Source of the DNA: Rhodothermia bacterium
GTDB taxonomy: Bacteria; Bacteroidota; Rhodothermia; Rhodothermales; UBA2364
NCBI GenBank assembly: GCA_017303715.1
Contig: JAFLBZ010000022.1
Span: 3,961 to 67,960, forward strand
Length of the DNA: 64,000 bases
Direction: 5' to 3'
The notes beneath the pieces are model-generated. The model was not told where the DNA came from. It searched no databases and was given only the letters and a program-made list of their open reading frames with translations. Made by a program: the position numbers and the translations under genes. The stretch's first letter is position 1. The number at the start of each line of letters is the position of its first letter. Below, in pieces: positions 31,014 through 56,212 of the stretch.

Positions 31014-31023
31014 TTACAAAAAC

Positions 31024-31275: not shown

Positions 31276-31319
31276 GTATCAAGCCGTTTGTAGTAATAAT
31301 ACCGAAAATTAAAACGTTA

Positions 31320-31560
31320 AAACACTACATTAACCCGTCCTTTAGGGCGAAGATATGAACAACCAAAAGCAATAGCTTGCCAGAGATGAAAAGCCAAGCA
31401 AGGCATTAACTCCGTCCTTTAGGGCGGTGAGAAGAGTGGCCCCAATCATAGGGCTTCAGCCCTGAAAGATGGATAAAGGCGAATGCCGTTCGTTGGGAAC
31501 GACTTTCTAACAAGATGCCACCCCTATGGGGCTTTGCTGTTCATTAAAAAGTAGAATAAA
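31320..31560. other. Hairpin-rich non-coding segment (candidate structured RNA or IS-end debris)
   Basis: Two copies of CATTAAC(C/T)CCGTCCTTTAGGGCG start at 31328 and 31404. GC-rich mini-hairpins are GGGCTTCAGCCC, CGTTCGTTGGGAACG and CCCCTATGGGG. A possible closing helix pairs GTGGC (31435-31439) with GCCAC (31517-31521). Confidence 0.3.
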
Positions 31561-31564
31561 CCCT

Positions 31565-31598
31565 TGAAAAACGGAATTTACGCAATCCCGTAAATTCT
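31565..31598 (-). terminator. Candidate Rho-independent terminator on the minus strand, about 150 nt downstream of lspA
   Basis: On the minus strand, GAATTTACG-GGATTG-CGTAAATTC (9-bp stem) is followed by G-TTTTT. Confidence 0.45.
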
Positions 31599-31745
31599 TA
31601 CATGATGCTCTTGAGGCCGGGACTGGCTTTTGCAGACCTATACTTGCTCAACCCACTAATGCACGTTAAGCATTAAATTCCTTTTAAATTAACGACTGGC
31701 TCAATTAGCAGAAAGCGGGTTATAATTTATTATCCGATTAGACAT

Positions 31746-39812: not shown

Positions 39813-39848
39813 TGTTCTTATTTGCTTTAAGGGTAGTTTGGGACATTG

Positions 39849-40511
39849 TTAAACACCGGACATCACATTCGCCGCCGTATTGGAAATCAGAAAACTCATC
39901 ACAATGTAAAACAAAAGCATAATGCTGCCTGCAACGGCAAAAATGACCCAGATCGGAATTTCCCGACGGGCTTCGGCAATGGCTTTGGCCCGTGGATAGC
40001 CACTCGATGCAAGTTGTGCCGTTCCAGATTGCACAAAGGGTTGAAGTTCTCGGTACAATTGATCTTGGATCACAGCCAGTTGGTCGCGGCCCACAATCTC
40101 AAATTTCCCCCTAAAACCTAAAGTGAGGCAGAGATAGAAAACCTCCAAGGCTTCCACATTTGCCCGCACATCTTGCCTTAAAAAGGACAAGCGCTCAAAA
40201 AACTGTTCGCCAGCATCATAACGGCCATACAGCTCGAACTGTAACGGATTCCTCTTCCAAGCATCATTGTATGGCCATGCAGGAATACTGACGGATTCGT
40301 CGAGAAACGCCACTAAGGCGAATTTGGCATGTTGGAAGTCCTGATAACCCACTCCAGCTTTTTTACAGGTGTCTTCCAATTTTTGAAGCGCCAATTTGGT
40401 ACTTTCTCTCAGTGTGCCGGGGTGTCCCGGATTTTGGGTTCGACGGATGTGCAATGCAAACATCAAAAACTCCGTGCAGAACTTTGAAAGGCGCGGACGT
40501 TTAGCACTCAT
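39849..40511 (-). CDS. tssL: Type VI secretion protein TssL (DotU family), no peptidoglycan-binding extension
   Basis: F..F.LF...R, ALVAFLDESV, PLQFELYG and GEQFFERL, with a single C-terminal TM. The protein ends 12 aa after that TM. Confidence 0.85.
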   Translation of the reverse strand: MSAKRPRLSKFCTEFLMFALHIRRTQNPGHPGTLRESTKLALQKLEDTCKKAGVGYQDFQHAKFALVAFLDESVSIPAWPYNDAWKRNPLQFELYGRYDAGEQFFERLSFLRQDVRANVEALEVFYLCLTLGFRGKFEIVGRDQLAVIQDQLYRELQPFVQSGTAQLASSGYPRAKAIAEARREIPIWVIFAVAGSIMLLFYIVMSFLISNTAANVMSGV

Positions 40512-40754
40512 GATTTACAACGTTGAGATGGACGTATAAATGCGGAACCATATTCCGTTTCCAGAAGGACCGCTGATCTATAAAAGTACCGCTCCGTATA
40601 AACGGATAAGCGATTTGCAGATACAATGTTGACGCAATATTGCCGTCTGTCTAAATTATGTGGCTTGGCTGTTTATAACCACTTCAAAAGGTTTAACTTT
40701 ACCACAAAACTCCTAATTAAGACCACAACAAGTAGCCGTCTTAATAGCGATAAT

Positions 40755-42110
40755 TTATGCAGAACGATTCAAAGCGATTAGCTCTAAATCCAACATTTTC
40801 AAGGTTGCAGGAACAAACAAGACCAAGGCTTTTTTAGCCCGAATGTCATCCCAGAAAGGTCCAGATTTTGAAAGCCTGAAATAAAATGCATCTGGCCTAA
40901 CAGGCAAACCCTTTGGCAAACTCATTACATAACTTACCTCAAGCGCCCGTACAAACCCCTTCAAGACGGGTTCGATCATGGCCGGAGACGCAATCCGAAT
41001 GTCACTTGGGAAAGAGGTGCGCATTCGATCAGAGGCAATTTGTCCGGTTGCGACCAAATACAATTCCACCTGATCTGGCAAATGACGATCCTCGAATGTC
41101 GCCAAATATATGGATTCCCCCTTACGCTTCAGGTCAATGCGTTCATATTCTTTCGAGAAGACCACATCCCCAAGCAAGGTACGGAATTGGTTAAAGAGGG
41201 TGTGGAAACAAGTCGTTAAGTCGCTATGATCATACGCGGGGAAATCATTATACGAAAAGGCGTTGGAATAGGTCGTTAGATACCCAGAAAGCCGCAAAAG
41301 GGTTAGAAAAAAGGCTTCTGGATGACTTTGGATGACCGCAAAATTGTGGTTGATTTCTGGAATAGAACCATTGATAGACTCCAAAAAAAGCATGGTCGTC
41401 ACGTCGGCAGCCGTTAGTTCCCCGCGACCATATGCCGCATGTTTCTCCATCAACGCTTGCCGCTTTGCGACCAAAAGTTCCATCGTTCTGCGGGCAACCC
41501 CTTCCAAAGCTTTCGAAGATGCAAGAGACAAACACGGTGGAATAAATTGCGGGTTCAATTCATAGGTTCCGGTACGGGTTCGTAAGACTTCTGCGATCTT
41601 AATGGTACTCAGGTCATTAACACTTTCACCCTCGAAGACCAATTGGAAATTGGCTTTTGCCACCTGAATAGGCCGGTCTTCGATTCCTGTATTGTCGTCA
41701 CGCACCATGATTTCGGAGGTGATGAAGCGCGTGGTTCGGTTAATCGGTACATCAGGCAAGAGCGTATTCCGTCCCTCTACCCTTTCAGCAGGAACGGCCA
41801 AATAAACCCCCAGACGGTCTTTGGTGGGATCAAAAGCACTTTGGATGGGTCTGGCATCTGGTACACGGTCTGTTTCCGGCACATCGAATACAAGGCCATC
41901 CGGCATAATACCACTGGCTTGAACCAAACTAAATTGCCCATTGAGCAGCGCTTCTTCATCAATCATCAATGTTAGGATACCCCAAGCATGACGTTGTAAC
42001 ATACGTTGCCGGAACACGACATTTGCCTGAGCAAAGCGATCCCACTGTTGGAAGTGGTGCGGGTCGAGGGCCATGCCTTCCGACCAAACTACTTTTTGAG
42101 GTCTAGCCAT
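40755..42110 (-). CDS. tssK: Type VI secretion baseplate protein TssK
   Basis: The N-terminus VVWSEGMALDPHHFQQWDRF matches the hallmark TssK start. Length is 451 aa. Confidence 0.88.
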   Translation of the reverse strand: MARPQKVVWSEGMALDPHHFQQWDRFAQANVVFRQRMLQRHAWGILTLMIDEEALLNGQFSLVQASGIMPDGLVFDVPETDRVPDARPIQSAFDPTKDRLGVYLAVPAERVEGRNTLLPDVPINRTTRFITSEIMVRDDNTGIEDRPIQVAKANFQLVFEGESVNDLSTIKIAEVLRTRTGTYELNPQFIPPCLSLASSKALEGVARRTMELLVAKRQALMEKHAAYGRGELTAADVTTMLFLESINGSIPEINHNFAVIQSHPEAFFLTLLRLSGYLTTYSNAFSYNDFPAYDHSDLTTCFHTLFNQFRTLLGDVVFSKEYERIDLKRKGESIYLATFEDRHLPDQVELYLVATGQIASDRMRTSFPSDIRIASPAMIEPVLKGFVRALEVSYVMSLPKGLPVRPDAFYFRLSKSGPFWDDIRAKKALVLFVPATLKMLDLELIALNRSA

Positions 42111-42176
42111 ACAATCGGTGTGGGTCTTACGTCTCTATGATGTTTCCCGAAAGAGGATTTTCCGGTTGTCCTTTAA

Positions 42177-42680
42177 TTATTTTATGGAAACCTTACTACC
42201 TTGAACAGACACTTGTAAAGTGCTGTTTTTGTTGGGATTGATTTCCGTGACTGTCCGCCAAAGATTACCATCAGGCCGGAAGAAATCCACCGCCACCCCA
42301 ATATACTTGGTGGTTTCGTAGAGGAAAACTTTGTGGTTTTTTGCAACATTGGGGTCAATCTCGAAGCTAAGGGTTTGGTTTGGATCTCCTGCAATGTCCG
42401 GCAAAAGGGTTTCCTTTTTCAGCCAAAAGGCTTGACGGGAAGAGGCCATAAAGAGTTCTTTGCGCTGGAGTTGATAGACCACAACCCGCACACGGTTCCC
42501 ACCATTTAGGCTTGCATCGGCTTTTACGGTCAGTTCAACTGACCGTCGGGTCTCGACTGGGGTTGTAACAACGGTTTGGGGTGGTTTTTTCTTTTTAAAC
42601 AAAGTACAGCCGGGCATCAAAACGCCTACCAAAAGTAGGGCGCTCCATAAAACGGAGTGTAAAACTTTTTTACGCAACAT
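42177..42680 (-). CDS. tssJ: Type VI secretion lipoprotein TssJ-like
   Basis: Lipobox LMPGC, 167 aa, LNGGNRVRVVVYQLQ....F resembling TssJ/SciN, and a position directly upstream of tssK. Confidence 0.7.
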   Translation of the reverse strand: MLRKKVLHSVLWSALLLVGVLMPGCTLFKKKKPPQTVVTTPVETRRSVELTVKADASLNGGNRVRVVVYQLQRKELFMASSRQAFWLKKETLLPDIAGDPNQTLSFEIDPNVAKNHKVFLYETTKYIGVAVDFFRPDGNLWRTVTEINPNKNSTLQVSVQGSKVSIK

Positions 42681-42719: not shown

Positions 42720-43970
42720 CTATTTAACAGATTCGGTTTTGGTCAAATAAGCCTTTACAAATCCGGGACGAAAGAGGGTCTTTTCCAGTACCCCTTTATC
42801 CTCTCGAACCAATTCAAAATGTGCTTGTTGCACCAATTTCAACCATTTTGCATGACTTAACATACCAACAGTGTATAAGTCTTGACCTTCTTTCTCCGCC
42901 ACATTCCGGATATACGCTGGGTTTAACTGGTCTAGAATGCGTAGGACACCCGATTGTACCGCTTGTTTGTACCCCTCTAACAAAGCGATTTCGTGATATA
43001 GGACAGCATCTGCAAATTGTTCTAAGGCCGCAAGCCGCGTTCGGAGTACTTCATAGGGCACATGAATGTCGTACAAGAAGGCTTTGTATTGTTCGGCAGT
43101 TGCGGTATGAAACGGAAAACCTGTGGCATGTGGAATAAAAGAATGCCCCAGAAACTCAAGCCGGAAATGGGCAGGAATTTTAATAAGTTTTTCCACAATA
43201 CGCAACATCACATCGTCCACAACCGACATCCGTTTCAAGACCAACCCATCTTGGCTACTACTATAAATCCCACCGATGACCCTTTCCCATTCGGTTTTGT
43301 TTTGGACATCTATCCCAGAAAAGGGTACAAAGCCCGGGGTTTCGTATCCTACCGATGAGGTGCGTTTTTCGGGTTCCACAGCAGCAACAGAGACAGGAAT
43401 TTGCGGTATTTCGGTCTTTGGCCGAATGGCATCCACCATCTTCAAGGCGATGTCATCTGCGGCAAGTATGCCCAATTCTCGCTGAAAAGCCGCTTCTAAA
43501 TCAGCGAGGCGGGTTCCGGGGTCTGCCTGCACATAGGTTGCTTTTATGTGTTGCAGGGCATCTGTTATGCCTTTTACTAAATCCGCAAATGGATTGAAGG
43601 CTTGCTGAACAGCCGTATGCCCCACGTCATCTTCAGCTTTCTCTGGTTCTACTTTTGGTGTAAGGTCTTGTATTTTAAGTTGATACTTACCGATCTCTAA
43701 TTGATCGAGGTCACGCAACTGGTATTTTTTGCCATGCTCAAGCTTTTCACCATTTAAATACGTAAAGTTCTTGCTCGCCTCGTCCACAATCCATGCAAAG
43801 GCATCTTCGAGGTAAATAACGGCATGATGCCGCCCGACAATAAGCTCACGGTCTGGCAGTACAACCTTATTTTCAGGAAGCCGGCCAATAGTCACCGGGC
43901 CTTCATCAAATAGATAATCGGATGTAAAATCATCCCGGACGGAATGGCTGACAATGATTTTGAGTAACAT
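42720..43970 (-). CDS. tagH: T6SS-associated FHA-domain protein (TagH/Fha-like)
   Basis: FHA domain at the N-terminus (GPVTIGRLPENKVVLPD..VGRHHAVI...DEASKNFTYLNG). The internal ATG at 43970 (MLLKIIVSH...) gives the typical TagH N-terminus. The ORF could extend to 44033. Confidence 0.75.
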   Translation of the reverse strand: MLLKIIVSHSVRDDFTSDYLFDEGPVTIGRLPENKVVLPDRELIVGRHHAVIYLEDAFAWIVDEASKNFTYLNGEKLEHGKKYQLRDLDQLEIGKYQLKIQDLTPKVEPEKAEDDVGHTAVQQAFNPFADLVKGITDALQHIKATYVQADPGTRLADLEAAFQRELGILAADDIALKMVDAIRPKTEIPQIPVSVAAVEPEKRTSSVGYETPGFVPFSGIDVQNKTEWERVIGGIYSSSQDGLVLKRMSVVDDVMLRIVEKLIKIPAHFRLEFLGHSFIPHATGFPFHTATAEQYKAFLYDIHVPYEVLRTRLAALEQFADAVLYHEIALLEGYKQAVQSGVLRILDQLNPAYIRNVAEKEGQDLYTVGMLSHAKWLKLVQQAHFELVREDKGVLEKTLFRPGFVKAYLTKTESVK

Positions 43971-44072
43971 GTCGGGTATAGATCGGCAAATGTATGAACC
44001 TTTCGCGGGCAATAGGATATGTGAATGTACCACTTATGGGAGGTTTTCGCAACCTTTTGTCCGGCAAACTTT

Positions 44073-45251
44073 TTAGAACGACCAATAAAGCCCTACACTG
44101 GCACTCAATTCTCTTAGTGAACCGAAAGTTGGGTAGTATTTTTCATTGGCGACATTGCCCATGACATAGCGAATGCGTAACGGAACCAAAACGCTATTGC
44201 TCACCCGAAAATCAGGCTCAAAGCCAAAACCAAAAACCAATGCGCCCGAAAGCCATGCGGGCGTAGCCTCATAAGAACGAAGTTCGGCAGTAAAACCTGG
44301 AACAAATTGTTTGTCTAAACCCATACGGTAGGTTCCACGAGCAATCATCACCGCAGGATTTGTGTTCACCGCCTCTTCTAAGGGTTTATCGCCAATAAAC
44401 TGTGCTACTGCGTTTTTTGCACGAGAACGATATCGGAGCATCGCAGACCATTCAGACGTTGGGTTAAGTTGTCGGTATTGAAGTACCATACTGAACTTAT
44501 TTCCCGCTTTAAACACGGATTGATCCACAAAAACATCCTCTTGATAGCTTGTCAGCATCGCATCAACCCCAAGAGAACCATTGTTCCCCACCCTCAAGTT
44601 TAGTCCCAGATCCGCCGTGACTTCGTTCCCCGGTTTATAGGTGTAGTCATAGTCTGCAAGTGGTCTAAACCCGCTGTTTACGATGTATGATAGCCCACCT
44701 CCCATTACCACTTGGTCATTTAAGGGAAATGCGCCCGAAACACCTGTCATGATGGCCGTTCCTTGTCCTAAAGTGGGTAATTTAAACGCTAAAACCTGAT
44801 TGGAAAAGAGCCCAAGTGTTTCCAACTCGGAAGCAGAAACCGAGGATCGTCCCGTTGGCAAATTTACGGTTGCGTTAAAAATTAAGTTAGGGCTAGGCAA
44901 GCGATAAGAGACAGAAACTTGCGTATCGCCTAATCCAGAAAGGGAGGTTTCAGGAACCGTATATGTGCAATCTTTACACGTTGCACTAAAGGTACCATGT
45001 GTATTGCGTAAGCTCAACAGCACCTGATTGTTTACCTGATAATAGACCAAGAGTTGGTTTGAAATTTGACTGAGCTTATTGGTTTCATCAGGATTTGCCT
45101 CAAGATTCCACGTCTGATACGTGGGCATAACGCTCACGAATCGTTGGTTTCGCACGTTTTGCGGGTCTTCGGTAGTAGGCGAAGTGGTTTGTTGTGCTAA
45201 TGCCGGAAAAGCAGTCAAAACCCCGGCGAGCAGCATTAAGATTTTTTTCAT
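44073..45251 (-). CDS. Predicted outer-membrane beta-barrel protein, family unknown
   Basis: Signal peptide (AFPALAQQ), an alternating beta-strand pattern throughout, and a C-terminal aromatic signature (GLYWSF). Confidence 0.55.
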   Translation of the reverse strand: MKKILMLLAGVLTAFPALAQQTTSPTTEDPQNVRNQRFVSVMPTYQTWNLEANPDETNKLSQISNQLLVYYQVNNQVLLSLRNTHGTFSATCKDCTYTVPETSLSGLGDTQVSVSYRLPSPNLIFNATVNLPTGRSSVSASELETLGLFSNQVLAFKLPTLGQGTAIMTGVSGAFPLNDQVVMGGGLSYIVNSGFRPLADYDYTYKPGNEVTADLGLNLRVGNNGSLGVDAMLTSYQEDVFVDQSVFKAGNKFSMVLQYRQLNPTSEWSAMLRYRSRAKNAVAQFIGDKPLEEAVNTNPAVMIARGTYRMGLDKQFVPGFTAELRSYEATPAWLSGALVFGFGFEPDFRVSNSVLVPLRIRYVMGNVANEKYYPTFGSLRELSASVGLYWSF

Positions 45252-45269
45252 GTCGTTTCAGGGTTTAGA

Positions 45270-46577
45270 TCAGTTGCCTTTGGGTGGAAATACGGGAGGC
45301 CGGGGCAAGTCTGTTTGCTCGGAAACCCGTCCAAATTCATCGGTAGGATTTCGTTTGTCAGGATTTGGGAAAAGATTGCTTCCAAGTTCGGTCCCCACTG
45401 CTTGTAAACGGTCTGCCACCAATTGGTCATTACCCAAACCGGAACCACCATTTTTGCCAGCTCCACTAAAGTCATAAGTGAAATTCAGGTCTTTCCATGT
45501 ACTTCCGGCGGCCTGCCGATTGATGTTCTTGTCCAGAAGCTCCCTGGCTTTTTGGAATTTAGGATCCAGTTCAACAGCGCGGCGGAAGTTTCGTAAAGCC
45601 CCTGTCACATCTCCACTGTCTTCGGACTCCATGCCTCTGCAATAGGCCAAGAAGGCTTGTAGGTTTTGGGTTGGAATGGTTCCCAATATTTTCTGGCGTT
45701 CTTGCTGGGTAATAGGGATTTTCATGCTTTCCAACAGTTTGATAACCACTGTTTTTTGGAGCCGGAACAAATCGGACAAAGGACCGGGTTCGGTCTTGAA
45801 ATCTGACTCATCTTTCAAAACATCCCAATAACCCGCATCAATGGTGATTTGGTCTTTTGCAGAAACATTATAATTTCCCGAAACCACCTTAGAGGCGCCT
45901 AAGATCCGCCCTGCACGAGGGGCCGTCTCTGGATCAATAAAGCCCGTTTGACCTTGTGCGATTTCTTGTTGGAGCACCCCAATCTGGAGGCGTTCTAATA
46001 ATTTAAGCCCCTGTACTGACCCCAAGTCCGTAATGATGAGGGCGGCGATTCCGCGGCTGAGTGGGGCATATTGTTTATTCTTCCCCAGATAGTTAAAGGG
46101 GAAAACGGCTACGGCATTTGGCTCAATCCGCCCATTGGTTAACTCTCCCGATGATTCTTTCCGCGCCAACTCGGACATTTCGGAGCGTAGAATTGCACGG
46201 GTCAGGTTCAGGTAACGCCCTTCCAGCAATCGGGTAAAGCTCACCTTGGGATCGTATTGGGTATGGTTTTTATAGATTTCCAAGGCTGATGCCCGCCGGT
46301 TGGTCGCCTCAAGCACCAATCCATAATAAAGGGCGACTTTGGGGTCTGCGGGAGAACGCACAAGGGCATCTTTCAAGTAGCTTTCAGCCTGATCGAATTG
46401 ATTCAACTCAAAATGAGCTGCCCCTAATTCGCGCATCAAGACTGGATTTCCTGGGGTTTTAACCAAAAGCCGCTCGTATTCCTGTATTCTTTCTTTTGGC
46501 GGTTTTATGTTTTGAACCCCACTGCATCCAGCTTGGAAAAGCAAGAAAGAGAAGAGCAACGTGTTGAAGTATCTCAT
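45270..46577 (-). CDS. TPR lipoprotein with central CsgG/LpoB/TolB-N-like alpha/beta module
   Basis: Lipobox FQAGC and N- and C-terminal TPRs. The central segment is AVAVFPFNYLG..LSRGIAALIITDL......LLER.....LQQEI......F.......AGRILGASKVVSGNY. Confidence 0.6.
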   Translation of the reverse strand: MRYFNTLLFSFLLFQAGCSGVQNIKPPKERIQEYERLLVKTPGNPVLMRELGAAHFELNQFDQAESYLKDALVRSPADPKVALYYGLVLEATNRRASALEIYKNHTQYDPKVSFTRLLEGRYLNLTRAILRSEMSELARKESSGELTNGRIEPNAVAVFPFNYLGKNKQYAPLSRGIAALIITDLGSVQGLKLLERLQIGVLQQEIAQGQTGFIDPETAPRAGRILGASKVVSGNYNVSAKDQITIDAGYWDVLKDESDFKTEPGPLSDLFRLQKTVVIKLLESMKIPITQQERQKILGTIPTQNLQAFLAYCRGMESEDSGDVTGALRNFRRAVELDPKFQKARELLDKNINRQAAGSTWKDLNFTYDFSGAGKNGGSGLGNDQLVADRLQAVGTELGSNLFPNPDKRNPTDEFGRVSEQTDLPRPPVFPPKGN

Positions 46578-46602
46578 AAAGGCAATTTTTTAAAGGACGA
46601 AC

Positions 46603-47721
46603 TTATTTTACATTCGCTGCGGCCATACGCTGCGAGGTTTCGATCACCGCAATTTTTTCTTTGGCTTGCTCGAATCTTCCATCCAATTGGGCTGCCAATT
46701 TAAATTTCTCCAAAGCCAAATCGGGACCTTGGGTGTGGTAAATTTCCAGTCCTTCCGCATATGCCAACATTGCATCTAAGGAATTGGTTGGATTGGCAGC
46801 GGCCATTTTGATATTTTGATTCTCGTTGATACGCCTGGCCAACCGAAGGGCCAACTGGTCAGAAAGCGCCATGATGTCAGCAGGTTTTCCTTCCATATTC
46901 TCGGTCAAGAGAATTTCGGATGTTTCGACCTTAACAAGCCGAGCTGCAATTCGGACACGGTTTTTGTCCAACACAATAAAGGTTCCAAAAACAACAGAAT
47001 GTGCCCCAAGCATTTTCCCGACCCTTACCGCCTGTGAGACATCAAAACTTGACGGATCATTTTGGATTTTGGCTTCTTGCATTAACCAATCTAACCGAGC
47101 TCTTTCTACCACCTTCAGGTTTACATTTTGTTGGAATTGAAACATCATTAATTGCGGGAGGCCCACCTGCAAACGGTCAAATCGGGCGGCATCGGTAGTG
47201 ATAGAGGCGTTGTGGAAATCCATCACGGCAATCGTTTTGATGCCCGGATCTGCCCGTTCTACCCCAAAACCACCTGTTTTATTTTTTCTGGCCATATAAT
47301 AGGCGCGAAGATACTCTAAAGGCTTTTTGTCTGGATCGGGATCATATGCGGGTGGTTCTTCCTGAAGAAGTGTGGAAACCAATTGTACTGCCTTGTTGGA
47401 TTCTTCGGAGGCAGCCGCAAATTCGGCCAAAGCCTCAATGGCCGCCCGACGGTCGGTAACACTTAAGCCACGGTCACGGCTAAGGCGCTCCAATTTAGGC
47501 AAAGCCTCATCGTATTCACCCATGTTAAACTGCCGGATCGCTTCCTGAACACGTGGATCAATAATCCGAATAGGCTGCGGCTTGGTGCTGGAGGTGGGTA
47601 CTTCGGTATTATTTGCCACTGGAGTTGACACCTCACTGGGCACGACTTTTGGCCCCGAACAAGCTCCAAAAACCAATGCAACCAAGGCCAGAAGCGTTGC
47701 TGAATAAAAGAAGGGTTTCAT
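46603..47721 (-). CDS. TPR lipoprotein, paralogue of the 45270-46577 product
   Basis: Lipobox VFGAC and the same TPR / IAVMDFHN...VVERARLDWLMQE...VGKMLGAHSVVFGTF / TPR architecture. Confidence 0.6.
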   Translation of the reverse strand: MKPFFYSATLLALVALVFGACSGPKVVPSEVSTPVANNTEVPTSSTKPQPIRIIDPRVQEAIRQFNMGEYDEALPKLERLSRDRGLSVTDRRAAIEALAEFAAASEESNKAVQLVSTLLQEEPPAYDPDPDKKPLEYLRAYYMARKNKTGGFGVERADPGIKTIAVMDFHNASITTDAARFDRLQVGLPQLMMFQFQQNVNLKVVERARLDWLMQEAKIQNDPSSFDVSQAVRVGKMLGAHSVVFGTFIVLDKNRVRIAARLVKVETSEILLTENMEGKPADIMALSDQLALRLARRINENQNIKMAAANPTNSLDAMLAYAEGLEIYHTQGPDLALEKFKLAAQLDGRFEQAKEKIAVIETSQRMAAANVK

Positions 47722-47749: not shown

Positions 47750-49336
47750 TTAAAAACGTACCGTTGTTGTGGCTGTTTTTCCGGCTACAACCTTAACAGA
47801 GGTATTTTTGGTGACGCCATTGGCAGTAACTGCAACCGCATAAGTACCTGGTTTTCCGGTAAATCTAAGCCGATTTCCATACTTACTGCCTAAATCGGAT
47901 GAAATGGTTGCCGGAAGCGGTTCTCCGTCAGACCCCACCACTGTTACCATAAACGAACCTACGGTCTCTTCAGGCTCAGGCTTAGGGTCTTCTTTTGGTT
48001 TTTCGGTTGCAGGTGGCGTTGTTGTAGGGGTTTGTGTTTGGGTTGGTCGAGTCGTGGGCTGGCTTGGTCGTGTTAGTGGCTCACGATTTTGGGCGGTTTC
48101 CCGAACGTTTTGCGCGGCTTGTTGCAGACGATCCCGAACAGGTGTATTGCTACCTTGGGGGGTAGGATTTGAATTTGCAGGCGTTGTATTGTTTGCCGGA
48201 TTGCCTGAAGGGGTTGTTTTCACCTCTGGCGTTATATTGGTTGTATTGCCCGTCGTGTTTTCTGGCGTGAGCGTACTTTGGGCCAAAGACTCTGGTTGTG
48301 GTGTAATTTGTTGGGAGGTTGGTTTTGGTTTTGGCGTAGGGTTTAACACAAATATCCAAGTGGCAACAAGTCCTAAGAGGACAACTACGGCAATGCCACC
48401 CAGCATGATCCAATTGGGTTGGCGCGTCCCACTATGGCTTGATTTTAAAGGAATGGCTGATTTTTTGCCCGTAGTAATGGGTGGGCTATAAGTCGCTTGT
48501 GATCCTGTTGCCAATTGTTGCAATCCAAGACGCATGTCTGATGCGGTCGCATAGCGTTTATCGGGCTTCACTTGTATCGCTCGATTGATCACCTTGGCCA
48601 AATCGGCGGGAATACCGGGGGCAGCGGAGGTAATCGCGGGGACATCTCCATCCACGATTTTCTTTTGGATTACAAAAGGTGAGGTAGCTGTTACATCCTC
48701 GAAAGGCGGTCGTCCAGCCAATGCCTCATACATCGTGATGCCCGTAGAATAAATATCTGTTCTTTGATCTACCGTGTCTAACCCACGCACTTGCTCTGGC
48801 GACATATAGTAGAGACTTCCTACAGCCTGTCCGACTTGTGTAAGTGGGTTTCCGGCAATCGTCGCCTGTGGGTCAATCAATTTGGCCAGTCCAAAGTCCG
48901 TCACCTTCACCGTCCCATCAGCCATAATCATAATATTGCTTGGTTTGATGTCTCGGTGAATGATGGCTTTAGAGTGGGCATATTCAAGAGCGCTCAATAA
49001 TTGGCTTGAAATATTGGCTACTTCCTCTGGCGAGTTATATTTGCCCTGCGCAATGAGGTCTGACCAATCTTTACCCTCCACAAATTCCATAATAATGACC
49101 ATACCAATGGGTGTTTCACGCATTCCAAAAACTCGAACGATATTGGGATGGTCTAACATGGCCAACGCTTTGGCTTCTGCACGAAAGCGCTGAAGGAACA
49201 TGGGGTCTTGAACGTTCATTACCTTGAGCGCAACGGTACGATCAAGTTGGGTGTCCACCGCCTTCCAAACTTGTCCCATTCCCCCCTGGCCAAGTTTTTG
49301 CGTAACCCTATAAATATCAATGTATTGCCCTACCAT
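47750..49336 (-). CDS. Membrane-anchored Hanks-type Ser/Thr protein kinase (PpkA-like role)
   Basis: GQGGMGQVWKA, VALK, HRDIKPSNIM, DFGLAK and SPEQ, then a TM (WIMLGGIAVVVLLGLVATWIFVL). A Pro/Thr-rich linker and a beta-rich PEGA/carboxypeptidase-regulatory-like C-terminus of about 70 aa follow. Confidence 0.9.
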   Translation of the reverse strand: MVGQYIDIYRVTQKLGQGGMGQVWKAVDTQLDRTVALKVMNVQDPMFLQRFRAEAKALAMLDHPNIVRVFGMRETPIGMVIIMEFVEGKDWSDLIAQGKYNSPEEVANISSQLLSALEYAHSKAIIHRDIKPSNIMIMADGTVKVTDFGLAKLIDPQATIAGNPLTQVGQAVGSLYYMSPEQVRGLDTVDQRTDIYSTGITMYEALAGRPPFEDVTATSPFVIQKKIVDGDVPAITSAAPGIPADLAKVINRAIQVKPDKRYATASDMRLGLQQLATGSQATYSPPITTGKKSAIPLKSSHSGTRQPNWIMLGGIAVVVLLGLVATWIFVLNPTPKPKPTSQQITPQPESLAQSTLTPENTTGNTTNITPEVKTTPSGNPANNTTPANSNPTPQGSNTPVRDRLQQAAQNVRETAQNREPLTRPSQPTTRPTQTQTPTTTPPATEKPKEDPKPEPEETVGSFMVTVVGSDGEPLPATISSDLGSKYGNRLRFTGKPGTYAVAVTANGVTKNTSVKVVAGKTATTTVRF

Positions 49337-49344: not shown

Positions 49345-50961
49345 TTAGTTATTGTTGTCCATTTTTTTGATTTCCGTAATTCGGTTTTGAATGGTCTCGT
49401 TGTCCAATAATTGTTGTGACTTCAGATACAATTCAATAGCCTCTTTGGGTTTTGCACGTTTTCCATCCCCTAGAGACATCAGTTTTTTTGCGGCTTTATT
49501 TCGCTCCTCTCGGTACGATGCTTCATTCCCAAATTCCGCTTCCAATGCCTTAAACTGTGCAATCGCTTCTTGGTGATTGCCCGATTGGAGGCTGCTCCAT
49601 GCAGACGCAAGCCCAGTGGTCAATTTTGCCCCATCTTTTGCTTGAACAGGTGGTTTTTCCGGTTCTGGTTTCGCGATCGGCGCTTCTACCGGTCTTGTGG
49701 TTTTGGATTTTACATCTAGTTTTGGCTGGTTATTTGGTAGAGCCGGCGTCACAGATTGCGCAGCCGAAAGAGGTGCTTGTTTCGCATCTGGATTTACGGG
49801 GTTATCCGAGAGCGCGGGCTGGAGGTCATCGGCGGATGAAGACAAAATTTCTTCGGCATTTGTCGGGTTTTCCTGATCGTTATGAGTGTAGGCATCGGCA
49901 TTATAAGGCTCATCTTGCAGTGCAAAAGAATTATTCTTAGATCGGTTTAAGAGATCCATATTGAACCAAACAGCCCCAATAATCACTAAAACAGCGATTC
50001 CCGTCAGGACGGGGATGAACCATTTGGGCCGCTCTTTTGCTTCAGGCGGTGGAGGTAAAACAGCGTGCCCACGATCATTCCGCCACGTTTCTGGTTGTTC
50101 TAAGGCATTCCAAACCCCCGTAGCCACTGCGGGAGTTGTCGAAGCACCAGCTTTTGTATCAAATAAAGTATTGGAAGTTGCGTAGGTAATGGGTTGATCT
50201 GTAGCAACAACACGGATCACCTGTACCGTTGAGTTGTCCATACCACCACGATCATTGGCCAAAGCCACCATTTTTTCTGCGGCTTCCTGTGGCGGCATTG
50301 AACGTACAATTTCAGCAATTTCATCCAGATGAACCTCGCCCAAGCCGTCGCTACACAGCACATAAACGTCATTCAGGTGAAGGCGGTCTATTTCGAATGT
50401 ATCCACCTCCACATGAGGTTCTGGGCCTAAAGCACGTTCCAACATCGAGCGTTGCGGGTGTCTTTCGGCTTCTTGCTGTGTTAAGATGCCCTTTTTGACC
50501 ATTGCCGAAATCATGGTATGGTCTTCCGAAATTTGCTCTGCTTTATCTGGACGAATGCGATACAATCGGCTATCCCCAACATGCGCCACAAAAACTCTAT
50601 CGCCATCCACCAACATCGCCGTACTGGTTGTTCCCATAATCTGGCCACCGGGCAATGCTTTCAGTAAATTGTGTATTTTCAAATTGGCTTCTTGAAAAGC
50701 ATGTTCCAACTTGGTCAGTACCGAACCCATTCGGCGTTCAAAATAGGCTTCTCCAATGGTATTGACGGCAGTATGGCTTGCAACCCTACCATCTGCATGT
50801 CCTCCCATTCCATCCGCTACCACATACAAACGGACTGCTGGCTTGTCGTCTTGTATCGTTCCGACAAAGTGCCCACAAGCGTCTTGGTTTTCGGTTCGCA
50901 CCCGTCCCACATCGGTTTTTTCGCCAAACTGGAGTTGGTGCGGCAGTTGTTTATGTGCCAT
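49345..50961 (-). CDS. Membrane-anchored PP2C-family Ser/Thr phosphatase (PppA-like role)
   Basis: RTENQD, VVADGMGGHADG, LCSDGL and DNSTV, then a TM (WFIPVLTGIAVLVIIGAVWF). The extracytoplasmic tail ends in TPR-like helices. Confidence 0.9.
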   Translation of the reverse strand: MAHKQLPHQLQFGEKTDVGRVRTENQDACGHFVGTIQDDKPAVRLYVVADGMGGHADGRVASHTAVNTIGEAYFERRMGSVLTKLEHAFQEANLKIHNLLKALPGGQIMGTTSTAMLVDGDRVFVAHVGDSRLYRIRPDKAEQISEDHTMISAMVKKGILTQQEAERHPQRSMLERALGPEPHVEVDTFEIDRLHLNDVYVLCSDGLGEVHLDEIAEIVRSMPPQEAAEKMVALANDRGGMDNSTVQVIRVVATDQPITYATSNTLFDTKAGASTTPAVATGVWNALEQPETWRNDRGHAVLPPPPEAKERPKWFIPVLTGIAVLVIIGAVWFNMDLLNRSKNNSFALQDEPYNADAYTHNDQENPTNAEEILSSSADDLQPALSDNPVNPDAKQAPLSAAQSVTPALPNNQPKLDVKSKTTRPVEAPIAKPEPEKPPVQAKDGAKLTTGLASAWSSLQSGNHQEAIAQFKALEAEFGNEASYREERNKAAKKLMSLGDGKRAKPKEAIELYLKSQQLLDNETIQNRITEIKKMDNNN

Positions 50962-50998: not shown

Positions 50999-53900
50999 TC
51001 ACCAGAACGTCCGGAATTTGAAGAGTTGTTCGCGTTCGCTATCCATTGCTAAGGTCATTGGCGGCAAGTCAGAATAAGATGGCCCACCTCCCGGCATCAC
51101 ATATTGCCCACTCCCGACTCGTTGAATGGCTGCGGCCAGTGGATTGTCAAAATCAAACCCAAATAAGCGCGGATTTTCGCCGATAACGGCTGCGGCGGTA
51201 ATGTAAAAAACATAATTTTTGGTTTCTTCCGGCATCCAGGTTTGCGTGTACATGTTCCAAAAATTACGGTCTCGTGGATTGTTTGGCATCGCACGTATCC
51301 GCTTGATGACATTTCCTTCCCCCCAGTTGTAAGATGCCATCACACACAAGCCTGATGCCTGAGCATCCGTTTTGTAAATATCCGCAATATAGGAAGAAGC
51401 GGCCTCGCCAGCTTTTACCGGATCGTGCCGTTCATCGCCTGGATCATAAACACCCGAATCTTTCAGTGGGCCTATTCTAAGGCCATATTTTGCACCTGTT
51501 GCTGGAATAAATTGCCACATCCCTTTAGCATGTCCATACCGTGTTGGCGGCCCCACAATTTTGGTATTAAAATTGCTTTCTTGCATACCCAAATAAAAAA
51601 ACTGTGGCGGCACACCACGTTTCATAAAACTGGCCACAATGGGTTCAACGTAGCCATTTTCTTGTGCGGTTTTTAGAGCATTTATATAACGGGAACTGCT
51701 TTGCCAATATTTGATATATTGTTTTACTTTCTCCACATAACCCGCCGGCATTATCATCTCATTCTCGCCAAAAAGCCGTGTGATATCAAAAATCAATTTA
51801 TCAACACTGCCGATATTATTCCCGCCATTTGCGAGATTTACCGCTGCTCGATATTGCGGACGCGCACGCATTTTTTCAGAATAGGCTTGTTGCATTTCGA
51901 TGATTTTACGGGCGGTTTCGTCTCGCAATTTTTTATTCGTATTGAGCGTAGAATCGTTCGCAAATTTAAGCTGGAGTTCTTTAATTTGATAAAATAAAAC
52001 GACATTTAAGGAATCCTGAGTCGTGAGTGCATTATTCGAGGCATCTAAGGCTGCACCTAAAGTATTGCTCTCGCTATGTTTCCAAAATGCCCAAATAGCC
52101 GCAATCAATAATCCTACAGCCACGACACCGATAATGACATAATATTTTTGCTTATCCCGCTTGCTCATTCGGTTAAAAGCCGCCATCATCATTTGTGTAC
52201 GAGAACCCATTTCTGCCGTTTGCCCCGACTCAAATTTGCGCATATATCCTGAAACGGATCCTGCTGCTGGGCTTGTCTTGGGTGCATCTTGGTATGAAGG
52301 CGCAATCGCAGAAGGTTCCCATTTTTTTTCACTTCCCCAATCCGAAGGTGGTTGATTTGTTGGCGGAATAGATGGGCTTGACCAATTTTCGGGTGCGGAC
52401 CACACATCGGCACTTGCCGGCTTTTGTGTCGGTTGCGGCGGTGACGCTCCCCACTCAGAAGCTGCACTTTGAGGCTCAGAAGGCTTGGCTGCCCAATCAA
52501 AGGCGGGCGAAGCGGCTGGTTTTTCAGACTCCCAACCCGATGAAGGGCTTTCTTCTGCTGGAGGCGAACCCCAAGACATGCCACCAGAAACAGGAGGCGG
52601 TGTGTCCCATGTCAAGCCCCCCGATTGGGGAGCATCCCAGTTCACAAAAGGATCATCTTCTGGGGGCGTCGTTTTTTGCTCTGGAACAGCCGGCATCCCC
52701 GGTGTACTCCATTCATAGTTGGGCGGCACATTATCCGAACCGCCCTTCTGGTCCCAGTCGGTTTGAGAAGTTAGCCAATCTGGCTTTGGGGTTTCTGACG
52801 ATTCCCAAGAAGTCGGCGTAGTTTGTTGGGCTATATTCGGGATGTCCCAACCACCGGAGGATGGCACTTCCCATTCAGTTGGTGAGACTGGAGCCGCTGA
52901 CGGGGCTTCGCCAACCACATTTTCCAATGACCTAAAAAACCCCGTGTTTAAGCCCGTTTGTGGCAAATCAGGTGTTTGCGCTGGCGTTATTCCTTGCAAG
53001 TCCTTGAGAGCAGAACTTATTCCAGAGGACAAGCCCAAGTTTTTAAGCGGATCCTCCACAGGTTCTGGTTTGCTGGGTGTCGGGCTTGGCGAGTTTTCTT
53101 GCTGAGGTATGTCCGCTAAGGCTTTAAAAATGCTTGACGGTAAAGACGATGCCGCTGAAGGAGACGGCGGAATGGCGACCTCATTCGGTGCTTCTTCCGT
53201 TAAGCCCGCAAAAAAACCCGTGCCCAAGCCTAAAGAACTTTCTATAGATGGTGCTGGCGTGGTCTCTGGTAATGGAGGTGAGGGCGAGGATGAAACTTCC
53301 TCCTGAACAGATTCCGACAAAGAACGGAAAAATCCCGACGCCAAGCCTGTGGATGTGGAGGTCTCTGGTGATACTGGTGAAGGCGGGGACGAGGCTTCCT
53401 CCTGAACAGATTCCGACAAAGAACGGAAAAATCCCGATGCCAAACCCGTGGATGGAAATTCATTTACGGCTGGCTCTTCCAAAAGCGGCGTTTGTGGAGC
53501 CTCAAAAGCAATATTTTCTGGTTTAGATTCAAAAAAAGCCTTCCCCGAATCTAATTCCGCCTTAAAAACGCCAGAGTCAATTAAGGGTTTGGATTCTGGA
53601 AAAGCAGATTCCCCTGTTTTTTCTGCTTCATCCGAGAACGAAGCAAAAAAGCCAGACGCCAAAGCTCCTGTTGGTTCTATTGGTTTGGGATCTATACGGC
53701 TTTCCACTGGTTCTGAAAATGCTGGTGAACCTCCCGAAATATCGCCTAACGACTGCCAAAACGAAGTTGCCAAATTGGGCGTAACATTCCCTTCGGGCGG
53801 CTTTTCCACCACATTTGTTTGGGGTTCAAAGCGTAGTAGTGGGCCATTTCGCCCAAACTCCACTTCTTTTGCCCCATCTAAGACAATGTGCGTAACTCTG

Positions 53901-54121
53901 GCGCCGTTTACCCAAATGCCGTTTGTGCTACCAAGGTCTTGGAGAACCCAATTTTCACCCTCTTTAATGACTTCGGCGTGGTTACGGCTAACAAGTGAGT
54001 TTGAGAGATAAATAGGACAGGTAGCATCCCTACCAATTTTGAATGCTTGTTCAAATTGAAAAGAGGTTGCAACGTCGGCAACTTGTCCTTTCAAAATAAT
54101 AACGCGGATGTTTGTTTGCAT
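50999..54121 (-). CDS. FHA domain - long disordered repeat region - TM - lytic transglycosylase (SLT) fusion protein
   Basis: N-terminal FHA (FKIGRDATCPIYL..VSRNHAEV....W.LQDLGSTNGIWVNG), then about 550 aa of low complexity. A TM (YYVIIGVVAVGLLIAAIWAFW) precedes the SLT catalytic region (LGMQESNFN...GAKGMWQFIPATGAKYGL...MASYNWGEGN). Confidence 0.8.
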   Translation of the reverse strand: MQTNIRVIILKGQVADVATSFQFEQAFKIGRDATCPIYLSNSLVSRNHAEVIKEGENWVLQDLGSTNGIWVNGARVTHIVLDGAKEVEFGRNGPLLRFEPQTNVVEKPPEGNVTPNLATSFWQSLGDISGGSPAFSEPVESRIDPKPIEPTGALASGFFASFSDEAEKTGESAFPESKPLIDSGVFKAELDSGKAFFESKPENIAFEAPQTPLLEEPAVNEFPSTGLASGFFRSLSESVQEEASSPPSPVSPETSTSTGLASGFFRSLSESVQEEVSSSPSPPLPETTPAPSIESSLGLGTGFFAGLTEEAPNEVAIPPSPSAASSLPSSIFKALADIPQQENSPSPTPSKPEPVEDPLKNLGLSSGISSALKDLQGITPAQTPDLPQTGLNTGFFRSLENVVGEAPSAAPVSPTEWEVPSSGGWDIPNIAQQTTPTSWESSETPKPDWLTSQTDWDQKGGSDNVPPNYEWSTPGMPAVPEQKTTPPEDDPFVNWDAPQSGGLTWDTPPPVSGGMSWGSPPAEESPSSGWESEKPAASPAFDWAAKPSEPQSAASEWGASPPQPTQKPASADVWSAPENWSSPSIPPTNQPPSDWGSEKKWEPSAIAPSYQDAPKTSPAAGSVSGYMRKFESGQTAEMGSRTQMMMAAFNRMSKRDKQKYYVIIGVVAVGLLIAAIWAFWKHSESNTLGAALDASNNALTTQDSLNVVLFYQIKELQLKFANDSTLNTNKKLRDETARKIIEMQQAYSEKMRARPQYRAAVNLANGGNNIGSVDKLIFDITRLFGENEMIMPAGYVEKVKQYIKYWQSSSRYINALKTAQENGYVEPIVASFMKRGVPPQFFYLGMQESNFNTKIVGPPTRYGHAKGMWQFIPATGAKYGLRIGPLKDSGVYDPGDERHDPVKAGEAASSYIADIYKTDAQASGLCVMASYNWGEGNVIKRIRAMPNNPRDRNFWNMYTQTWMPEETKNYVFYITAAAVIGENPRLFGFDFDNPLAAAIQRVGSGQYVMPGGGPSYSDLPPMTLAMDSEREQLFKFRTFW
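53261..53458. repeat. Tandem 99-bp (33-codon) duplication inside the FHA-SLT gene
   Basis: Copies at 53261-53359 and 53360-53458 share a 43-nt identical core (CTTCCTCCTGAACAGATTCCGACAAAGAACGGAAAAATCCCGA). On the minus strand they encode GLASGFFRSLSESVQEE(A/V)SS.PSP..PET twice. Confidence 0.85.
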
Positions 54122-54334: not shown

Positions 54335-56212
54335 TCATTTTGAGATTTCAAAGCCAAGCGCAAGACTTATTTCGTCTCCTAACAAAGACTTTGGCGAATT
54401 GACCCAGATACCAACACCAAAATGATCTTTGGATCGCGGACTATCACCAACTTCGACCTTGACCGCATTTTCATCAAGCTGATATCCGCCCTCAGATAAC
54501 ACAGCAGTCAATTGGGCAGACAGTTGCGCTTGAATATTAGATGCGCTCATCCCTGCGACGAGTTTGGTTTGTGCAAACAGAATGGCTTGAGTGATTTTTG
54601 AAGTCACCATTTTGCATGCAAGTGTTGCATGGAGTTTTGCCTCTGCCAATGAATCAGGGTCTATATAATTGGCTACTTTTTGAAAGGACTGCGCACCCGA
54701 AATATACAAGCTATCTGTATTGGGCCGAGATGCCAAAACTGTAAAACCCGCATCTGCCAATTCACTTTGTTTTTGTTGATCTAACCACATAAACAACGGT
54801 GAAGCATTTGTATCCGATTTTCTAATGGGATAATCGGCTTGCAGACCTGCACCTCCAGCACCAACAAACCCTACACCCCAGCCGTGTTTTAGGTATCCTT
54901 GTGCAAGAGCGATGCCCACAGGCAACGAAGCTCGACCCCACAAATGCCCACTCCCATCCGAAGGGGTTTTCTCGTCATAAGCTAGGCCGCCTAAAAGTTG
55001 CACTCCACGATAAGGCGCCCGGAGCAAAACATGTGGGAGTGCTAACGTTATCCAGCCAGAAGAAGGTTGTTCTCTTAATAATGGCCAGCCTAAAAACGCG
55101 GGTTTTTGCAGGTGTTGCAAAATGCTTGCCGCTCGGAGATTGCCATAGGCATCCTTTTCTGTCCAAAGCCTCGTTGCGGCTGCCCCAATAACCGGAATTT
55201 GTAAACTCGCTGCCGTTTCTGAAATATCCGATACGCGCTCCAAATCCATCGCAACATCCCCAAACGTAAAGTCCAAAATCATTGCTGCAAAGGGTACTTG
55301 TGGGGGTTCGTGATAGGCTGGCAACAAAACTTGGTGGTATAAGGCGGTGTTAAGTTGCTCTTTATTGACGGATAACACTTCCAACCGCACGTTTTTGCGA
55401 AAATCCAAACGATCCACCATTTTTTTTAAACCACGCCAAGCCGATTCTAATTGCTGAAAAGCCGTATGGTGTAAAATGGCATCCAATTGCTGAGCAATAC
55501 TGCGCTCTACATCCTCAATAGCTTCTTGAAGTGTAGATTTTCCAACTTCAGCCGGACGGGCAGGCTTTGAAGCCGATTTTTGTCCCGCCAATGCCCGAAT
55601 CAAGGCGTCCATAGGATCGCCCCCAGCTTGTTTTCCAGAAGACGGCGTGTCAATATCAACTAAATTCAGCAAATTATCCAATCCCCCACCAGTTGATGAT
55701 GATATTGAAGGTGCTGATGTTTGAGGAGTCGGCTGGATTCGATCCGACCAATGAAATGCTTCTTCTCTTTCAAAACCAAGCGTTTGAATGGTTCCCACAA
55801 ATTCATGATGGCCTATTTGGTCTCGCTTCACCATAAGTAAGGCATCTCTTAAGCCGAGATAACGCTTCACCAAAGGTAGCTGGTCTATCAAGCGGTCTGG
55901 CTGAAAAGCCTGTATATGATCAAAAACCAATGTTGAGGTAAGTGTTTTTGGGCCATTACCAAGGTGATTAGGAACCTCGATGGTGACGGAAGGCCGCCAC
56001 GAGATCATTAATTCCGAGAAAGTGTATTTGTCAACTTTGACGAGCTGAGTTGCTCCTTCCCAATCAACCTCGTGCATCAAATGAGGCGTCAGATCAGAAG
56101 CTAAAAGGAGGCGAAAGGGCGTATTGGTCGCAATTTCGCGGGGTTCTTCCCCTTTAGAAGCAGAGAATCCCATATTTACACGGAATTCCTGAATTGGAGA
56201 GGTGTTTTCCAT
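54335..56212 (-). CDS. tssBC: Fused TssB-TssC (VipA-VipB-like) contractile sheath protein in one polypeptide
   Basis: aa 1-150 parallel TssB/VipA (FRVNMGF...TPFRLLLASDL, VKVDKYTFSELM, VFDHIQAFQPDRLIDQLPLVKRYLGLRDAL). aa 155-175 are a Ser/Pro/Thr-rich linker. aa 175-625 parallel full-length TssC/VipB (LDAILHHTAFQQLESAWRGLKKMVDRLDFRKN, LLRAPY, HLWGRAS, SELADAGFTVL, C-terminal EISLALGFEI). Confidence 0.85.
   Translation of the reverse strand: MENTSPIQEFRVNMGFSASKGEEPREIATNTPFRLLLASDLTPHLMHEVDWEGATQLVKVDKYTFSELMISWRPSVTIEVPNHLGNGPKTLTSTLVFDHIQAFQPDRLIDQLPLVKRYLGLRDALLMVKRDQIGHHEFVGTIQTLGFEREEAFHWSDRIQPTPQTSAPSISSSTGGGLDNLLNLVDIDTPSSGKQAGGDPMDALIRALAGQKSASKPARPAEVGKSTLQEAIEDVERSIAQQLDAILHHTAFQQLESAWRGLKKMVDRLDFRKNVRLEVLSVNKEQLNTALYHQVLLPAYHEPPQVPFAAMILDFTFGDVAMDLERVSDISETAASLQIPVIGAAATRLWTEKDAYGNLRAASILQHLQKPAFLGWPLLREQPSSGWITLALPHVLLRAPYRGVQLLGGLAYDEKTPSDGSGHLWGRASLPVGIALAQGYLKHGWGVGFVGAGGAGLQADYPIRKSDTNASPLFMWLDQQKQSELADAGFTVLASRPNTDSLYISGAQSFQKVANYIDPDSLAEAKLHATLACKMVTSKITQAILFAQTKLVAGMSASNIQAQLSAQLTAVLSEGGYQLDENAVKVEVGDSPRSKDHFGVGIWVNSPKSLLGDEISLALGFEISK

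Follow-up and report, generated by a model that had tools for sequence, protein, structure and literature searches.

Reviews and structural papers on type VI secretion systems (T6SS) describe their contractile sheath as an assembly of TssB and TssC, the products of two genes (PMC5048182, PMC5807055). In Pseudomonas aeruginosa, the handshake that forms the sheath tube consists of TssB N-terminal and TssC C-terminal strands, whereas domain 3 bundles a single C-terminal helix from TssB with two N-terminal helices from TssC; it is an insertion into the phage-like domains 1 and 2 and sits at the sheath's exterior (PMC5807055). The TssC N-terminal helix binds the N-domain of ClpV in enteroaggregative Escherichia coli (EAEC; peptides DSVYASLFEKINL and ATDDCLEEIINNTRA) and in Vibrio cholerae (PMC5048182). 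Here we describe a gene, tssBC, that encodes both sheath subunits in a single open reading frame (ORF) on a 64-kb stretch (hereafter the window, whose positions are used throughout) of contig JAFLBZ010000022.1 from a Rhodothermia bacterium (assembly GCA_017303715.1).

Comparison with described contractile sheaths places the fused protein among those of the T6SS. Its Pfam families and predicted fold are those of the canonical T6SS(i) pairs (V. cholerae VipA/VipB, P. aeruginosa TssB1C1 and M. xanthus TssB/TssC; PDB 3j9g, 5mxn, 5n8n and 5urw), with which it shares the strand at the TssB N-terminus, those at the TssC C-terminus and the helix motif of the TssC N-terminus, and its gene is likewise embedded with genes for TssJKLM, Fha, PpkA and PppA. 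Unlike these pairs, which are encoded by two genes, it consists of one polypeptide containing a ~60-amino-acid (aa) disordered linker. In this respect it resembles the sheaths of contractile phages, R-pyocins and extracellular contractile injection systems (eCIS)/T6SS(iv) (gp18, PA0622, Afp2–4 and PVC), in which the whole protomer is a single polypeptide and with which domains 1 and 2 are remotely shared. The fused protein differs from these sheaths in having domain 3, which is specific to the T6SS, and the helix motif of the TssC N-terminus, and the neighbours of the fused gene belong to a T6SS(i) membrane complex, not to an eCIS or a phage. We put at roughly 80% the probability that the product of the ORF is a functional single-chain protomer of a T6SS sheath, with complete TssB and TssC joined by the ~60-residue disordered linker, encoded at a T6SS(i)-like locus in a bacterium of the Rhodothermales type.

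One ORF encodes both sheath subunits

The ORF list shows the minus-strand interval 54335..56212 as one 625-codon ORF with an ATG start and no internal stops. The gene and its parts are as follows.

54335..56212, minus strand: fused tssBC gene, 625 codons plus stop (Pfam VipA and VipB; NCBIfam TssB and TssC; AlphaFold model)
55739..56188, minus strand: TssB/VipA-like part, aa 9–158 (PF05591; PDB TssB chains; Foldseek match to 5urw_1A; model helices up to aa 159)
55682..55738, minus strand: linker 1, disordered and rich in S, P, T and G, aa 159–177, sequence IQPTPQTSAPSISSSTGGG (pLDDT falling from ~74 to ~50; no secondary structure)
55652..55681, minus strand: internal motif LDNLLNLVDI, aa 178–187, counterpart of the TssC N-terminal (ClpV-binding) helix motif (family conservation)
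55547..55651, minus strand: linker 2, aa 188–222, with a short low-confidence helix at 200–208, PMDALIRAL (low pLDDT)
54338..55546, minus strand: TssC/VipB-like part, aa 223–625, with a diverged C-terminal domain (PF05943; TIGR03355; Foldseek)

Pfam matches T6SS_VipA (PF05591) to aa 9–144 (E 1.2e-14; 54.8 bits against a gathering threshold of 24) and VipB (PF05943) to aa 230–511 (E 1.3e-48; 166 bits against 27), the latter over profile positions 2–301 of 301. The two matches do not overlap, and the NCBIfam profiles fall in the same order, TssB followed by TssC. Searches of PDB sequences align aa 9–131 with the TssB chains (E 8e-7 to 5e-5) and aa ~173–566 with the TssC chains (E 6e-33 to 3e-31) of P. 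aeruginosa, V. cholerae, A. vinelandii and M. xanthus. Besides the fused gene, the 64-kb window contains no separate VipA-like ORF, TssB being the N-terminal part of the 625-aa product. Pfam gives no phage-sheath match on the protein, and scans for promoters, terminators and tandem repeats around the gene returned nothing relevant to the fusion.

A first-pass annotation of this DNA, made from the sequence alone, had proposed an uninterrupted 625-codon TssB-TssC ORF, and the ORF list and Pfam bear it out. The two non-overlapping profile matches on one protein are what it had expected, and the TssB and TssC motifs that it quoted are all present in the translation (VKVDKYTFSELM, FQPDRLIDQLPLVKRYLGLRDAL and ILHHTAFQQLESAWRGLKKMVDRLDFR). 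Its view that the fusion ties the TssB C-terminus to the TssC N-terminal helix region also agrees with the layout of the junction. The S/P/T-rich linker of ~20 aa that it described corresponds to aa 159–177, but the whole disordered junction is longer, extending over ~aa 159–222.

Predicted structure of the fused protein

With a 74-sequence alignment, AlphaFold models the protein at a pLDDT of 88.6 and a pTM of 0.86, and disorder is restricted to aa 1–30 and ~160–222; an 8-sequence alignment gave a pLDDT of 78.1 and a pTM of 0.78. Although the C-terminal gpW/gp25-like domain (PF18945) is unmatched by sequence, aa 512–625 are modelled at pLDDT >90 with C-terminal strands (584–624). Foldseek aligns the model with almost entire TssC chains (TMt 0.69–0.79 over 420–465 columns, 21–24% identity) and with M. 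xanthus TssB 5urw_1A (TMt 0.68, root-mean-square deviation 3.7, 128 columns). The elements needed for polymerisation, namely the N-terminal strand, the C-terminal strands and domains 1–3, are all predicted, and the model shows the two halves folding together as in the TssB/TssC heterodimer. Similarity to phage, pyocin and eCIS sheaths is remote (TMt 0.25–0.52, 9–14% identity, E 1e-6 to 1e-3) and far weaker than that to T6SS sheaths, ruling out a phage or eCIS-type sheath.

The position of the junction is compatible with this architecture. Because the TssB C-terminus and the TssC N-terminus both lie in the outer domain 3, the fusion would join ends that are already neighbours at the surface, and the linker should leave the inner handshake strands, formed by the TssB N-terminus and the TssC C-terminus, undisturbed.

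A conserved motif within the linker

An alignment of 146 representatives of the fused family reveals a common layout: the TssB part, a low-complexity stretch (median 24 aa), a conserved motif, and ~34 more disordered residues. The motif reads LDNLLNLVDI in the window protein and [SA]LDRLLGMVD in the family, with conservation among the 146 representatives of 86% (L/V/I), 64% (D), 87% (L/I), 73% (L), 62% (M), 82% (V) and 66% (D). Stand-alone TssC proteins from the collected loci carry the same motif near their N-termini (SLLDQAISATK, SLLDSLLSETKL, LLDEIIEASKL and GVLDGLFEMVDMA). Further along the junction, HMMER aligns aa 199–211 to the VipB region ahead of the first core helix. The candidate ClpV-binding region of the window protein corresponds to the peptide GGLDNLLNLVDIDT, for which the family consensus is ALDRLLGMVDLG. 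Judged by sequence, the linker motif is the same motif as that of the TssC N-terminal ClpV-binding helix region, and binding of ClpV is predicted. Since the helix of this region is the one bound by the N-domain of ClpV, the fusion would retain the ClpV handle in an internal, flexibly tethered form.

The long, disordered and low-complexity junction also raises the question of a polyprotein, in which the linker is cleaved, or TssC is produced from an internal start, and the working sheath is still a two-chain heterodimer. Both the window protein and its close relatives do have a methionine, M201, in the linker. However, conservation of M201 does not extend across the family, fused loci show no consistent linkage to a protease, and the conserved linker element is the TssC N-terminal helix motif, with no recognisable cleavage site, so that a two-chain sheath of this origin is highly improbable.

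A large and diverged family of fused sheath proteins

Homologues at 100, 72, 46, 32, 28 and 25% identity are all 595–626 aa in length and carry both Pfam domains. A 74%-identical copy is found in "Bacteroidetes bacterium UBA2364", from a scan of species-representative genomes that gave two loci only, one of them a canonical split system. The uninterrupted layout recurs at 100%, 72–74% and 46% and down to ~20% identity in independent NCBI, JGI, ENA and Logan assemblies. Between the close relatives L003 and L010, the ratio of nonsynonymous to synonymous substitution rates (dN/dS) comes to 0.10 over the gene; by part, it is 0.11 (TssB), 0.12 (linker) and 0.10 (TssC). An artefact of assembly or sequencing, with the single ORF hiding a tssB/tssC stop/start pair, is ruled out by the conserved layout across assemblies and by a dN/dS of ~0.1 that includes the linker, and we regard its probability as negligible. 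Both profiles, the fold, the layout kept in relatives and purifying selection together support a genuine single-polypeptide TssB-TssC sheath protein.

The extent of the family was assessed in two ways. First, a profile built from eight fused proteins was run against 1.84 billion representative proteins (clusters at 50% identity) and gave 8757 matches, the best 150 of which, with scores down to 318 bits, were examined; nearly all of these 150 are 590–650 aa long and align end to end. More than 100 residues precede the linker in 137 of the 146 aligned representatives, corresponding to at least ~137 fused clusters at 50% identity, and more fused clusters exist below 318 bits. Within a 74-member sample of the 146, PF05943 is matched in all 74 proteins, PF05591 in 69 (both in 69) and PF18945 in 8. 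Second, a metagenome scan with the main-clade alignment, in which sheath genes were typed with our own hidden Markov models of the two halves, yielded 80 loci: 55 with the fused gene only, 5 with fused and separate tssB/tssC genes, 14 with separate genes only, and 6 fragments. Distant members of the family are ~20–30% identical. Fused TssBC is thus a large, deeply diverged family.

The single-chain T6SS sheath had been presented in the first-pass annotation as exceptional, a view that does not hold with at least ~137 fused clusters and a fused gene in 60 of the 80 metagenome loci. Fused genes are therefore common, but they do not appear to have been described: full-text literature searches, with most subscription papers outside their scope, found no account of a natural TssB-TssC or VipA-VipB fusion, only engineered tags and VgrG/Hcp fusions. 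Database labels of the fused proteins include "contractile sheath large subunit", "sheath domain-containing protein" and "ImpC".

The T6SS locus in the window

The fused gene is the first of a co-directional array that continues, in the order below, to TssM, after which follow IleRS and housekeeping genes.

50999..54121, minus strand: FHA and SLT lytic transglycosylase domains separated by low-complexity repeats, 1040 aa (Pfam FHA aa 28–90, SLT aa 835–947)
49345..50961, minus strand: PP2C phosphatase, PppA-like (Pfam PP2C_2/PP2C; syntenic in relatives)
47750..49336, minus strand: Ser/Thr kinase, PpkA-like (Pfam Pkinase, 190 bits; syntenic in relatives)
46603..47721, minus strand: CsgG-like lipoprotein (Pfam CsgG aa 160–254; conserved in fused loci)
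45270..46577, minus strand: TPR protein (Pfam TPR families; conserved in fused loci)
44073..45251, minus strand: probable outer-membrane beta-barrel protein, 392 aa, with a signal peptide and the ending ...YWSF (barrel proposed from sequence features only)
42720..44033, minus strand: T6SS FHA protein, TagH/Fha-like (Pfam FHA and T6SS_FHA_C; TIGR03354 77.9 bits, under its cut-off)
42177..42680, minus strand: TssJ lipoprotein (PF12790; TIGR03352 56.5 bits, cut-off 31.6)
40755..42110, minus strand: TssK baseplate subunit (PF05936 364 bits; TIGR03353 355 bits, cut-off 100)
39849..40511, minus strand: TssL (DotU) (PF09850 170 bits; TIGR03349 170 bits, cut-off 90)
36288..39812, minus strand: TssM (IcmF) (Pfam IcmF-related_N, IcmF-related and IcmF_C; TIGR03348 636 bits, cut-off 388)

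TssJ, TssK, TssL and TssM are contiguous at 36288–42680, and all exceed their NCBIfam cut-offs, giving a T6SS(i) membrane complex plus TssK. With its Ser/Thr kinase, PP2C phosphatase and FHA protein, the cluster resembles T6SSs regulated by threonine phosphorylation, such as the P. aeruginosa H1-T6SS with PpkA, PppA and Fha. Unlike the H1-T6SS, it adds an FHA-SLT protein encoded immediately behind the sheath gene, together with a CsgG-like lipoprotein, a TPR protein and the probable outer-membrane beta-barrel protein.

These additional genes recur in relatives. The gene directly downstream of fused tssBC encodes FHA and SLT domains in L001–L004, L009, L014, L016, L017 and L019, and an FHA+SLT gene is present in 34 of 71 fused loci; this suggests a peptidoglycan-cutting T6SS accessory under phospho-regulation. 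In the window, the middle of the FHA-SLT protein is Pro/Ser-rich and repetitive, with a 99-bp tandem repeat (53261–53454) and the repeated peptide GLASGFFRSLSESVQEE. The CsgG-like lipoprotein, the TPR protein and the 392-aa YWSF-ending protein (44073–47721, minus strand) form a trio that is kept in fused-sheath loci and may represent an outer-membrane accessory module. The 392-aa protein has no Pfam or NCBIfam match and is homologous to a 389-aa protein of L004 (E 3e-28).

Related fused loci

Related fused loci, unlike the window, encode Hcp, TssEFG, VgrG and TssH/ClpV. L004 and L046 share the order ClpV-VgrG-PAAR-Rhs-x-DUF2169-TssBC-FHA/SLT-PP2C-kinase-CsgG-like-TPR, and the TssH/ClpV of L004 scores 1066 bits with TIGR03345 (cut-off 885); ClpV is also encoded in L046, L068, L073 and L074. 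A VgrG/DUF2169/Rhs-TssBC-FHA/SLT order is found in L014, L016, L017 and L019. Among these VgrG/PAAR/Rhs/DUF2169 clusters, the fused gene is the sole sheath gene in L004, L014, L016, L019 and L046. The order TssM-TssBC-(Hcp)-TssE-TssF-TssG in L060, L061 and L076 places the fused gene exactly at the usual tssB-tssC position.

Several variations on the sheath genes are present in this dataset. A short-form fused subfamily (525–550 aa, linker ~45 aa) occurs in L074, L077, L080, L081, L084, L086, L088, L090, L093, L094, L097 and L099, where the fused gene is preceded by a TPR gene and a gene for a 262–274-aa protein matching the FHA-SLT profile, with VgrG and ClpV on the opposite strand. In L018 (404–6859), a called protein of 2151 aa (P0080) contains two successive VipA-VipB-VipB_2 units along with TPR and protein-kinase domains, and the similar P0122, P0123 and P0132 are 1116–1305 aa long with 3–6 matched stretches; these four are either giant multi-sheath fusions or artefacts of gene calling or stop codons. 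Canonical Planctomycetota-type clusters carry a second TssC-like paralogue right after tssC (L011 at 11142–12857, L070, L071 and L087), in the order TssA-TssB-TssC-TssC'-TagJ-TssE-F-G-ClpV-Hcp. In L047, L048 and L053, the fused gene is divergently transcribed from the adjoining tssB-tssC genes.

Probable function of the fused sheath

The most likely reading is canonical T6SS sheath function with an enforced 1:1 stoichiometry and with ClpV recruited by the internal helix motif. The fused protomer would polymerise around the Hcp tube, the sheath would sit on a TssK-containing baseplate docked to TssJLM, and it would contract and then be disassembled. As the TssC N-terminal helix motif survives internally, recycling by ClpV/TssH through this flexibly tethered motif is the most likely mode, and the chief effect of the fusion would be to enforce equal stoichiometry and co-folding of the two halves. 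The genes hcp, vgrG, tssAEFG and probably tssH would have to be located elsewhere in the genome.

Several observations weigh against a functional sheath of this kind. Both NCBIfam matches score below their equivalog cut-offs (TIGR03358, TssB, aa 7–145, 52.5 bits against 97.25; TIGR03355, TssC, aa 200–566, 185.7 bits against 271.5), and the Pfam scan of the fused protein gave no match to PF18945; the sheath protein is therefore divergent, unlike canonical T6SS(i) sheaths, as its 21–24% identity to solved TssC structures also indicates. The window locus is a partial T6SS only, with no hcp, vgrG, tssA, tssE, tssF, tssG or tssH/clpV anywhere in the 64 kb. ClpV is encoded in only 7 of the 37 fused loci of at least 12 kb, these loci being partial views. 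The fused gene lies beside ordinary tssB/tssC genes in L047, L048, L053, L055 and L059, and nine loci (L028, L029, L032, L038–L041, L043 and L052) contain tandem fused paralogues of ~550 and 620 aa, so that not every fused protein need be the main sheath.

The first-pass annotation had pointed to the lack of clpV in the locus and proposed a different recycling mechanism. In principle, fused sheaths may have lost ClpV-dependent recycling in favour of another route, for example ClpB, as in Francisella, or dilution and proteolysis. The small share of larger fused loci with ClpV is in keeping with such a loss, as is the otherwise canonical-looking fused cluster of L061, which has no clpV after tssG. 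The absence of clpV from the 64-kb window stands as an observation but carries no weight, because six other core genes (hcp, vgrG and tssAEFG) are absent as well. TssH/ClpV shares a cluster with fused tssBC in L004, L046, L068, L073 and L074, and the TssC N-terminal helix motif ranks with the linker's best-conserved features, an argument that its binding function is kept. A different recycling mechanism is therefore not indicated by the missing gene, and loss of ClpV dependence appears unlikely.

The loci with additional sheath genes bear on a further alternative, in which the fused protein serves as an accessory paralogue of the sheath (initiator, cap or regulator), with the bulk of the sheath formed by a canonical TssB/TssC pair encoded elsewhere. 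Consistent with such a division of labour are the five loci in which canonical tssB-tssC adjoin the fused gene, the nine with tandem fused paralogues, and L008 and L065, in which a TssC-only paralogue directly follows the fused gene. However, in the clade closest to the window protein (L001–L004, L010, L012, L014, L016, L019 and L046), no sheath gene is in view other than the fused one, which heads a conserved T6SS module, and the predicted fold comprises every polymerisation element. An accessory role for the window protein thus seems distinctly unlikely, and a single-chain protomer of the main sheath is preferred.

Origin and distribution

The TssC parts were compared in a neighbour-joining tree (244 sequences, 389 columns) that is without bootstrap, has no known root, and is biased in its sampling towards fused proteins. 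Of the 35 stand-alone TssC sequences, 32 form one clade, which also holds 11 fused proteins; these include the short-linker fused group of L059–L061, L063 and L076, found in canonical-order clusters. The remaining ~200 fused sequences lie outside that clade, and the window protein groups with L001, L010 and P0003 in a 20-member clade, the sister of the main clade linked to VgrG/DUF2169. The distribution of fused proteins in the tree suggests more than one origin of the fusion.

The first-pass annotation had suggested that the fused sheath could be an evolutionary intermediate. An ancestral or a derived position of the main long-linker family can be addressed only tentatively, as the rough tree is compatible with a fused ancestor and cannot establish one. 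A more far-reaching proposal is that these loci form a distinct T6SS lineage with its own envelope module (FHA-SLT, CsgG-like, TPR and outer-membrane beta-barrel proteins), in which a single-chain sheath of phage-like topology with a domain 3 insertion is the ancestral state, and from which the two-gene tssB/tssC arrangement arose by fission. The nesting of the stand-alone TssC clade among fused sequences is compatible with an ancestral single chain, and we hold this scenario to be possible but rather doubtful.

Source names within the fused family comprise Rhodothermales/"Bacteroidetes Order II", Bacteroidetes bacterium UBA2364 and Planctomycetota, and its taxonomy is based on these few names only. 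NCBI taxonomy assigns Rhodothermales to the phylum Rhodothermota; GTDB places them inside Bacteroidota. A 2024 paper reported no complete Bacteroidota genome with a T6SS(i)-like membrane complex (PMC10781749). In the window, the T6SS(i)-type TssJ-K-L-M complex (36288–42680, minus strand) occurs in a genome with SusC/SusD (19282–23739) and Rhodothermales-like relatives.

Significance

Fused sheaths bear on several aspects of T6SS biology. To our knowledge, all work on T6SS sheaths to date, whether on structure, assembly or ClpV recycling, has dealt with two-chain TssB/TssC, and reviews and classifications call this layout universal. A large natural single-chain family would show that the two-chain split is not essential for a working sheath, and through it one can ask, in a natural setting, whether ClpV is able to engage a helix that is internal instead of terminal. 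It also provides a handle on the relation of T6SS sheaths to the single-chain sheaths of phages. For annotation, tools that require separate TssB and TssC matches, or equivalog cut-offs, will under-call fused systems in Rhodothermales, Planctomycetota and other environmental groups. In terms of mechanism, the fusion probably has a modest impact, since both ClpV and the motif for recycling are kept.

Other features of the window

The sole RNA gene found in the window is a tRNA-Phe (GAA) at 30268–30341 (plus strand), in a ~1.5-kb stretch without a long ORF (30183–31746). Histidine-utilisation genes, coding for urocanase, an imidazolonepropionase-like amidohydrolase and an arginase-family enzyme, occupy 764–4692 (plus strand), and a second arginase-family gene at 18222–19217 (plus strand) adjoins a TonB-dependent receptor/SusD pair.

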